NCBI GenBank assembly: GCA_030141605.1
Contig: JAQGDQ010001183.1
Span: forward strand, 1 to 57,029
Origin: Tubiluchus corallicola
Taxonomy: Eukaryota > Animalia > Priapulida
Direction of reading: 5' to 3'
Length of the DNA: 57,029 nt
The first letter of the stretch is position 1. Each line of letters starts with the position of its first letter. This document shows positions 32,201-35,200 of the stretch, in pieces. The notes below the pieces were generated by a model. That model worked only from the letters and a program-made list of their open reading frames with translations, did no database searches and was not told the DNA's origin. Made by a program: the position numbers and the translations under genes.

Positions 32201-35200
32201 AATCCTCTGGCTCAATAATTGAAAAAAACATACAGTAAACAGTCTCAACAAGATATGTCACTATTTCACATTATAATTTTAATTTGATACAAATAGGAGA
32301 ATTTTAATTAACCAATTATTTATAAATTTAGTTTGAAAATTATCAATTAACCCTTTCATACCCGTTGTATCCCGTGGGATACGAGAATATTTTCTGCCTT
32401 TAAAATTAATAAAATTTTAAAACTGACAGTTATTTGATCTGTTAATAGTTATTTTGATTTAAGCCAATAACAATAGACTAAAAATGGTGATAAAATGGCA
32501 AACTAGAAAATCTACATAGCATAATAAACTGCTCAAGGTACAGTACTTTAGAGATGACTTTGTACAGATCAGTATAGCATGGATACTAAATGTCTTAAAT
32601 ACTTTAAGAAATTATCAGCAGTTGCAAAATGAAGCACATTTTATGCTTCCATTGAATCCCAATGTATTCCGTGGGATACAGGCTATATTTAGCACGCGTG
32701 CACAGGTAAAAAAATAATAATTATTATGTGTAAACAAGATGGACATACTGAACGAAACTACCAAGCCAAAAAAATTTTTCTTATTAAAAAAATAATTTGG
32801 GACTGAAAGGGTTAATGCCAGAATTATCACTTTTTTGAAAACCATCAAAATGAAGGAGAAAAAGTATAACAAAGCCTGTACTCGAACCTGAAACTTCTAG
32901 ATCACAATTTTAACGCTTTGCGTGCTAATTTTTTAAAATACCTGATAAAGTCTCGTACAAAGGGGCCGGAGTTGTCATCACGTCACGTCGTTTACGGAGG
33001 CTCCACATCTCGGCGGCGAAGGCTTGAATGAACGAGACGTTTCCGAAAGACAGCTGCACATTCCGAGACACTGGCAACAGCACACCCTCCTGAAATGAAA
33101 GTAGATATCCATGTCACTCCTGTTCCCTTGTCATGCTGCACGGTAGCAAGTGCATTCACTGCATAATAAAGCCGCTCATTACACTCGCATAAACTGTGAT
33201 TCAAAACACAAAAGCTTGCAGATATTTTTACGAACTTAATGCCACTGCGAAAAAAACTAGATTGTGTGCAAGTGTTGCTCAGTGTATGGACAGTTAAATG
33301 ATCATAATCACCGTCATGATCAACATCATCATCATCTTCTTCATCGTCATTGTCGTCATGGTCATCATCACCACAAGCAACACCACCACCACCATCATCA
33401 TCATCAGCAGCAGCAGCAGCACCATCATCATCATCACCACCACCACCACCACTATCATCATCATCATCATCATCATCGGCAGCAGCAGCAACAGCATCAT
33501 CATCATCATCACCATTACCATTAACACCACCATCATCATCATCAGCAGCAGCAGCAACAGCACCATAATCATCACCATCATCATCACCAACCACAACAAC
33601 AACATCATCATCATCATCATCACCATCACCACCACCACCATCACTATCATCATCATCATCATCATCACCATCATCATCATCGGCAGCAGCAGCATCATCA
33701 TCACCATCACCATTAACACCACCATCATCATCAGCAGCAGCAGCAGCAGCATCATCATCACCATCATTATCATCATCACTATCACCATCATCATCAACAT
33801 CACCACCACCATCACCATCAACATCATCATCAACATCAACATCACCACCATCATCATCATCAACATCACCACCGCCATCACCATCATCATCATCATCTTC
33901 ACCATCACCATTATCACATGACCCTCGTGAAATGAAAGTAGAATGTCAAGCCACTTGAATTGAGGTTGCATCACACTGTGGACTACAGACTAACAAATGT
34001 GAGACACGTAGGACAACCCACAGAACAAAATGATGTTACCCCCAGTAAAAGGATCGAGGCAGATAACATCATCCATTTTTTACCTGGCTAAGACAGTTAA
34101 TGTAAATGAAAGAAATAGTTAAAAGCATTGTCAGATTTGCACAATTACACCGACGCACGCAGAACAACAAAAACCAGGCATGTCGGACAGCCTAAGGAAC
34201 AAATGTTACCACAATAAAGGATCAAAACAAGTAATTTTTCCTGCAGAATAAACAACTTTGCTTAGACACGGGATAGCAGGTTCATCTATATATTAGGCTG
34301 TCAAGGTTGGCAAAGGAAACTTCACAATCAAAGCAAGTAATTTTTCCTACAGGATAAACAACTTTGCTTAGACACGGGATAGCAGGTTCATCTATATATT
34401 AGGCTGTCAAGGTTGGCAAAGGAAACTTCACAATCAAAGCAAGTAATTTTTCCTACAGGATAAACAACTTTGCTTAGACACGGGATAGCAGGTTCATCTA
34501 TATATTAGGCTGTCAAGGTTGGCAAAGGAAACTTCGCAATGTAAAGCATGTGACATGGTATGTATTATGTGCTATCACATGTACAAGTGGCACAATAGAC
34601 AGAATCAGGGATTTACGGAACATTCCGGAGCAAGTACTAAGATCACACGTACGTATAATTACAAAAGTGCATATATAACACTCAGGGGCGGATGCAGGCT
34701 TTCAAACAACGGTGGGCCCAACAGAAAAGCAGTTAGGGGGTCTGCGAAAGCAGTAGAACCTCCCCAGAGAGGTCCACCCGGACAACAACACATTTCACTG
34801 CATTTTAGACCACTTTTCTGCCTTCTAGAAGCCGTTTCATCAGGAAAGCTCACTAGTCTAGAACACGTGTCATCTCACCTTTGACTCAAAATTACACGCC
34901 AGCATATTTATATACACTAAACAACATACATGATGTACATATCTTTCATCTGCGTTCTTGTGATATATGATTTTTACAGATACAGGGATGAGAATGACAA
35001 ATTGCAAAAAACTCTGAAACAGGCCGGGGGTTTGGGGGCCGCGCAGACCACCATGGGGGTTCAAGGGGGCGAGCCCCTTGCAGCCAGCAACAAATTGGAA
35101 TTTTGTAACCATAGAGAACTTCTAAGTGGACTTAAAATATCAATTACCTTGTTTCATGCATAATTTAAAATACATAACTATCAAGGATAAATGATACCTA

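Follow-up and report, generated by a model that had tools for sequence, protein, structure and literature searches.

The minus strand of the stretch of Tubiluchus corallicola DNA analysed here (57,029 nt; hereafter the window) carries a gene with many introns that belongs to the inter-alpha-trypsin inhibitor heavy chains (ITIH) and is built of repeated VIT and vWA units, in which a predicted exon at the junction of modules 1 and 2 encodes the basic motif RKRR. We give an even chance to the reading that this motif, spliced into the message and cut by a proprotein convertase, serves as an internal pro-site of an ITIH polyprotein that evolved independently. The motif is real, the exon that carries it is probably real and cleavage is plausible; a familiar site of the family would here stand in an unusual, internal place.

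A predicted gene of tandem ITIH modules

The window is AT-rich, repeat-rich eukaryotic DNA. Using an HMM of 52 homologous modules together with inspection of splice sites, we built a model of 19 predicted exons that runs on the minus strand from 54223 to 8114 and encodes 1089 residues with 0 stops and matching phases. Module 0 contributes its two last exons, followed by one of 27 nt; module 1 contributes eight and module 2 seven, with the RKRR exon between them. The end of module 0 and the linker between modules 0 and 1 (50806..54223, minus strand) are encoded by exons 54223-54092, 52360-52273 and 50832-50806, of which the second is the module-0 end exon (phase 0 to 1), bearing the module-end motif YNLLTP, and the third is the small linker exon (27 nt, phase 1 to 1). 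The eight exons of module 1 (35577..50172, minus strand) lie at 50172-49998, 49360-49250, 45388-45250, 43569-43461, 41707-41544, 40719-40584, 39876-39724 and 36259-35577. Module 2 (8114..28816, minus strand) stops in the middle of its vWA domain; its exons 1-4 are at 28816-28624, 26741-26622, 23686-23530 and 16377-16278, and its exons 5-7 at 15495-15332, 11543-11258 and 8296-8114. An apparent frameshifted exon at 22836 was dropped, the true exon at 16377 taking its place. The two modules are not interrupted at the same places: in module 1 the vWA contains an additional intron (40584/39876), the intron that follows 8114 in module 2 is missing, and the third VIT intron is placed six codons earlier.

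The VIT domain of module 2 matches Pfam PF08487 at 28841-28623 (E 6.5e-9), that of module 1 scores 28.7 bits with our own module HMM, and in both modules a vWA domain follows, as judged from Pfam, PDB matches and the model. In PDB searches the module-2 vWA exon matched human ITIH4 (E 3.9e-21) and the large exon of module 1 matched human ITIH1 (E 8.4e-9), and the module-0 end exon gave 0 matches. Searches for protein homologues returned 17 matches among 85 candidates for the module-2 vWA exon, the named ones microbial, and 0 among 4552 candidates for the module-1 exon; a protein cluster atlas yielded generic vWA clusters only. Module 1 is divergent throughout, being at most 26% identical to any homologue, and its MIDAS is degenerate (DVSLG; T to D; D to A). 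That of module 2 is intact (DVSGS, T, D), as the preliminary description of this locus had held. Human ITIH1/HC1 (PDB 6FPY) and ITIH4 (PDB 9C4F) share the VIT and vWA module with the window gene, and the MIDAS with its module 2; the window gene differs from them in having at least three tandem modules, a degenerate MIDAS in module 1 and a basic site that is internal.

Both ends of the gene are missing from the window. Its 5′ end lies beyond, with no signal peptide seen inside the window, which includes just two exons of module 0 and not its vWA domain. An HMM scan of the window detected no further exon of module 2 beyond 8114; at 3316-4747 (minus strand), where the rest of the module would be expected, lies a BTB-BACK gene with no apparent introns, split over two frames near 4150. 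Neither an ITI_HC_C domain, which is not part of the HMM, nor an Asp-Pro self-cleavage site was seen in the window, and many invertebrate ITIH homologues are without ITI_HC_C. Fragments of transposons are scattered through the window (12895-13271 and 44849-45243; 5220-5716, 51471-52039 and 56279-56846; 43735-44103), presumably including transposase-like and LINE-like pieces, together with a weak match to DUF6451.

Sequencing runs touch parts of the model. A 234-nt contig of run X2 joins exons 2 and 3 of module 2 (splice 26621/23679, with 2941 bases skipped) and is about 92% alike (18 of 221 bases differ over 23543-23679 and 26621-26704); this module-2-like transcript, which may come from a paralogue, supports the only join of the model to have such backing. 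Over 26566-26921, likeness to the DNA-like run X1 is about 98%. The segment 22885-23408 was rejected as a gene-specific duplication, being high copy in X1.

The predicted exon at the junction of modules 1 and 2

The junction exon (32942..33089, minus strand; 148 nt, phase 0 to 1) is bounded by an acceptor AG at 33091-33090 and a donor GT at 32941-32940, and joins in frame with the phase-0 donor of module 1 at 35577 and the phase-1 acceptor of the module-2 VIT at 28816. Frame 0 is the sole stop-free frame of the three and ends ...WSLRKRRDVMTTPAPLYETLS. The RKRR codons (32985..32996, minus strand) lie in the context WSLRKRR-DVMTTPAP, a strict R-X-K/R-R followed by D-V, which places the motif at model residue 671, 26 residues ahead of the VIT start. 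The GC content of the exon is 0.55, compared with 0.36 in introns, a value reached by 1 of 289 intron windows of 148 nt. With a matrix derived from the other exons, the acceptor at 33089 obtained the top score among the 104 AGs scanned between 35551 and 33061; the donor, at 5.6, is not out of line with the 18 other donors, whose scores run from −3.1 to 12.6. One open frame, high GC and the best acceptor thus suggest that the exon is probably coding. The preliminary description had placed RKRR just before the next VIT in a phase 0-to-1 exon, and the frame, phases, AG/GT borders and stop-free model agree with it, on predicted splicing. It had also held that the linker between modules 0 and 1 is without a convertase site, and we confirmed that exons 52360-52273 and 50832-50806 contain no RxxR, KR, RR or KK.

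Searches for direct traces of the exon were unproductive. No RNA join 35577-33089 or 32942-28816 was found, and no RNA run was found among the sequencing runs matching 35560-36300. Neither X1 nor X2 covers the exon, which is uninformative, as X1 also has a hole at 23500-23719. The exon peptide gave no usable match in Pfam or the protein cluster atlas. Some 120 bp downstream of the exon lies a short element (32346-32817, 94% alike to 21131-21597) with a depth of about 10,000-30,000 in X1, which is likely to be a MITE. On the plus strand, the intron after the exon contains an ATG-to-GT stretch (29615-29737) with no match in Pfam, which recalls, we presume, the first exon of an arrestin-domain protein.

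The preliminary description took this for a dedicated linker exon, a view that our analysis does not establish: the exon has the same phases (0 to 1) and occupies the same slot as the module-0 end exon. The HMM puts its first six residues on the columns of the module-0 end motif YNLLTP, and in the alignment to 6FPY (tag offset 12) its start falls on HC1 residue 600. HC1 strands at 601-652 are described as belonging to the beta-sandwich, with only 631-638 disordered (PMC7170535), so that an exon in this position would be expected to complete the fold of module 1. In sequence the match to the module-end motif is poor, with a score of −17.1 compared with at least 14.7 for members, ranking 27 of 1075 windows; for the module-end strand motif Y-x-F-V-T-P-L-T, module 0 scores 28.3, and module 1 has only the proline in register. 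Neither the 65 open AG starts of the intron nor the HMM yielded a better module-end exon for module 1. Compared with the N-terminal pro-regions of homologues, the exon is alike at RRDV only (best p 0.010 of 19, not significant after correction), and homology of its first 30 residues to N-terminal propeptides was rejected (0 of 19 at p<0.05). The 5′ part of the exon likely stands for the module-end strand, and the 3′ part holds RKRR-DV and a stretch rich in S, T and P; on this sequence comparison neither a module-end nor a captured-propeptide origin is proven.

The pre-VIT motif and tandem modules in the ITIH family

We surveyed the motif in 46 cluster representatives longer than 550 residues, of which 39 showed where the VIT begins and 33 of these were preceded there by 20-129 residues; the six dropped at the last step were four with short N-termini, one fused model and one with an internal VIT. 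RxxR occurs within 35 residues before the first VIT in 16 of the 33 representatives (7 strict), compared with 51 of 645 body windows (2 strict), and in 16 of the 21 whose N-terminus is at least 39 residues long. Five of the seven strict cases fall in one orthologue group, which leaves three independent cases. RxxR before the VIT is thus a feature of the family, as read from these sequences, and the motif itself is commonplace; given this pattern, the RKRR of the window gene would be the site that the family usually has before its VIT, placed in this case at a junction inside the chain. The strict motif is rare within homologous module bodies, being present in 2 of 645 windows of 35 residues and 2 of 449 windows of 49 residues, and follows the module-end motif in 0 of 28 stretches. 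With these counts, and a chance of about 0.013 from composition, RKRR is unlikely to stand at the module junction by chance.

The closest counterparts of the site are found in single-module proteins of Owenia (CAH1794595.1, RFRR-DV) and Ptychodera (XP_070558043.1, RHRR-DV), which have the same D-V after the cut as the window gene. Their site lies 9-10 residues before the VIT, and across homologues the distance is 2-20 residues, compared with 26 in the window gene. In these two proteins the site follows the signal peptide and would remove a short propeptide, whereas in the window gene it follows a whole module. We infer that the N-terminal RxxR sites of ITIHs are cut; a literature search on ITIH propeptide processing found no direct source, and passages of PMC7793589 contain nothing on propeptides.

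Among tandem polyproteins processed by convertases, nematode polyprotein allergens have repeated units joined by R-X-K/R-R linkers; the window gene is unrelated to them in fold and has a site at only one of two junctions.

A HMMER search returned 79 matches, headed by a frog two-module model and a three-module protein of Antedon. In the frog model, about 390 residues between the modules look like a mis-joined prediction. A search with the Antedon protein, in which 7991 candidates were scored, returned five three-module echinoderm proteins, all named 'uncharacterized': Antedon XP_071961230.1, Anneissia XP_033119583.1, Apostichopus XP_071817702.1, Patiria XP_038068542.1 and Diadema XP_071509557.1. 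These are single gene models of 2160-2253 aa from crinoids, a sea star, a sea cucumber and a sea urchin, their modules fall into three orthologous clades, and each protein has one N-terminal furin motif. Like the window gene, they carry VIT-vWA modules, here three, in one chain, with linkers of similar length. They differ from it in the place of the strict site, which precedes the first VIT in five of five echinoderm three-module proteins and no other, whereas the window gene has an internal site. Inter-module linkers of six echinoderm proteins contain RxxR in 0 of 12 cases.

In quick trees that kept 34 of 45 rows, and in which module 1 sits on a long branch, the window modules fall outside the echinoderm clade (SH-aLRT 99), near a Priapulus ITIH, and modules 1 and 2 group together weakly (76). 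Orthology to the echinoderm gene was rejected (AU p 0.00037 for module 2 with M3; 0.00665 for both modules with all 12), and no orthologue of the window gene was found in our searches. A likeness of the linker to that of Antedon, suspected by eye, was also rejected (p 0.53), and 0 of 12 echinoderm linkers were more alike than shuffles. From the position of the window modules outside the echinoderm clade, tandem ITIH architecture, already on record, probably arose at least twice. We found no paper on multi-module ITIHs in a literature search that was thin on subscription journals.

Proposed cleavage at the junction and alternative readings

The strict furin/proprotein convertase consensus is R-X-K/R-R (PMC3083689), and its core is matched by RKRR at model residue 671. 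In the mechanism we propose, the RKRR exon would be spliced into one long mRNA encoding a secreted multi-module precursor, and a furin-type convertase would cut after RKRR within the secretory pathway, as was proposed above for single-module N-termini. The cut would give module 2, with its intact MIDAS, a mature N-terminus D-V-M-T-T and would break its covalent link to modules 0 and 1, which would remain joined. On this reading the site is the pro-site that ordinarily precedes the VIT in this family; after a tandem duplication specific to the lineage it was retained, or arose anew, at an internal junction, and the exon bearing it also occupies the slot of the module end. Beyond the motif, frame, phases, MIDAS states and family pattern, which are observed, we infer splicing on both sides, secretion, cleavage and separation of the products. 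Splicing of the exon on both sides in a working gene is quite probable and, given splicing, it is fairly likely that the site is cut to effect. The narrower proposal, that the tandem duplication was independent of that in echinoderms and that a convertase cuts this junction only, so that a heavy chain able to bind metal is freed from a scaffold whose module has a dead MIDAS, seems to us somewhat doubtful. The preliminary description had called the cleavage selective, which we cannot uphold, as module 1 itself contains another strict match to the consensus, RLKR (35828-35817, minus strand), at a strand end. This RLKR is not conserved, most homologues having only G-R/K-L there.

The main alternative, which we consider unlikely but not negligible, accepts the splicing and supposes that the site stays uncut, as a relic or shielded, or that after the cut module 2 remains bound, through residues close to the cut that pack on the neighbouring beta-sandwich; a cut need not separate the parts, which could possibly be held non-covalently. 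It draws on the echinoderm three-module proteins, whose 12 linkers are free of internal sites, and on HC1, in which residues 601-652 apart from 631-638 are ordered and the chain is described as packing back on its own module (PMC7170535). The flanks of furin sites are described as polar and exposed (PMC3083689), and the P14-P7 flank here, QAFAAEMW, is rather hydrophobic; on the other side of the cut, P3′-P6′ (MTTP) lies within the S/T/P-rich stretch. Against this alternative, the full four-residue consensus and D-V stand at the family's usual place and are rare by chance, and an ungapped count from HC1 residue 600, which is a count and not an alignment, puts the motif at 631-634, in the disordered loop.

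A second alternative concerns the locus itself. The preliminary description missed an insertion that doubled the acceptor of the RKRR exon and brought in a rival acceptor 69 nt upstream. A 22-bp direct repeat is present in two copies 837 bp apart, an exon-side copy (33084..33105) that spans the acceptor and keeps its AG, and an upstream copy (33921..33942) in which the AG reads AC; there are two matches in the window and none in 100 shuffles. The repeat covers the acceptor and the first seven exon bases, and the change of AG to AC is the single difference between the copies. Between them lies the inserted block (33104..33920, minus strand), composed of an (ATC)n microsatellite and a piece of module 2, or of a close paralogue, that takes in an intron and the 55 nt with which the fifth exon starts: 33104-33780 copies 15441-16080, from which it differs at 7 of 142 bases in the intron and 6 of 55 in the exon. 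The block is not a high-copy element, because its depth in X1 is 17, compared with about 10,000-30,000 for the neighbouring repeat. Its substitutions and the divergence of the X2 contig are sequence hints of further close paralogues of module 2. Used as an acceptor, the upstream repeat copy would meet a stop at 33297, and the loss of AG in that copy only, a single mutation, is suggestive of selection for splicing at 33089.

If splicing instead used the acceptor carried by the block (exon start 33158), an immediate TGA would end the protein after module 1; this, or truncation of module 2, in a decayed or mis-assembled locus would leave no cleavable precursor. Such an outcome is improbable, although the acceptor at 33158 closely copies that modelled at 15495 and the window yielded no second half of module 2. 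Each end of the window also has an inverted copy (1-1924 and 13895-15868, 94%; 51288-52450 and 55901-57029, 93.5%) with one ITIH exon; these copies look like assembly faults, and numerous 1-nt deletions in the right-hand one resemble those of long-read ends that were badly polished. Against decay or mis-assembly, the acceptor at 33158 scores 1.3, compared with 9.3 for that at 33089, and 19 exons run without a stop or frameshift despite the low identity of module 1. In addition, the 22-bp flanking repeat and the substitution-type differences argue for a real insertion rather than a chimera.

It is more improbable still that module 2 is, or is also made as, a separate ordinary ITIH, in which a signal-peptide exon joins the RKRR exon and the cut trims a propeptide. 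In favour of this, single-module N-termini show the same RxRR-DV pattern, there is at 34072-33995 a signal-like, phase-0 stretch from ATG to GT (3 such stretches in 35576-33945, compared with a shuffle mean of 0.52, with 2 of 100 shuffles reaching 3 under a permissive filter) and read-through of the donor at 32942 stops after four codons. Against it, the candidate donor is weak, the pre-insertion intron would have been about 70 nt, when all other introns in the model are far longer, and module 1 would end at a phase-0 donor without its last strand, with no better exon to supply it in the scans described above.

Because the motif is textbook and common at the N-termini of the family, the surprise of an internal pro-site in the window gene is modest. 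By doubling the acceptor, the insertion provides a tidy natural experiment on how splice sites are chosen. Few studies have dealt with invertebrate ITIH proteins. If the reading of an internal, convertase-cut pro-site is true, duplication of a whole module would have turned an N-terminal trimming site into an internal polyprotein site, and one gene would yield two ITIH products of different metal-binding ability.
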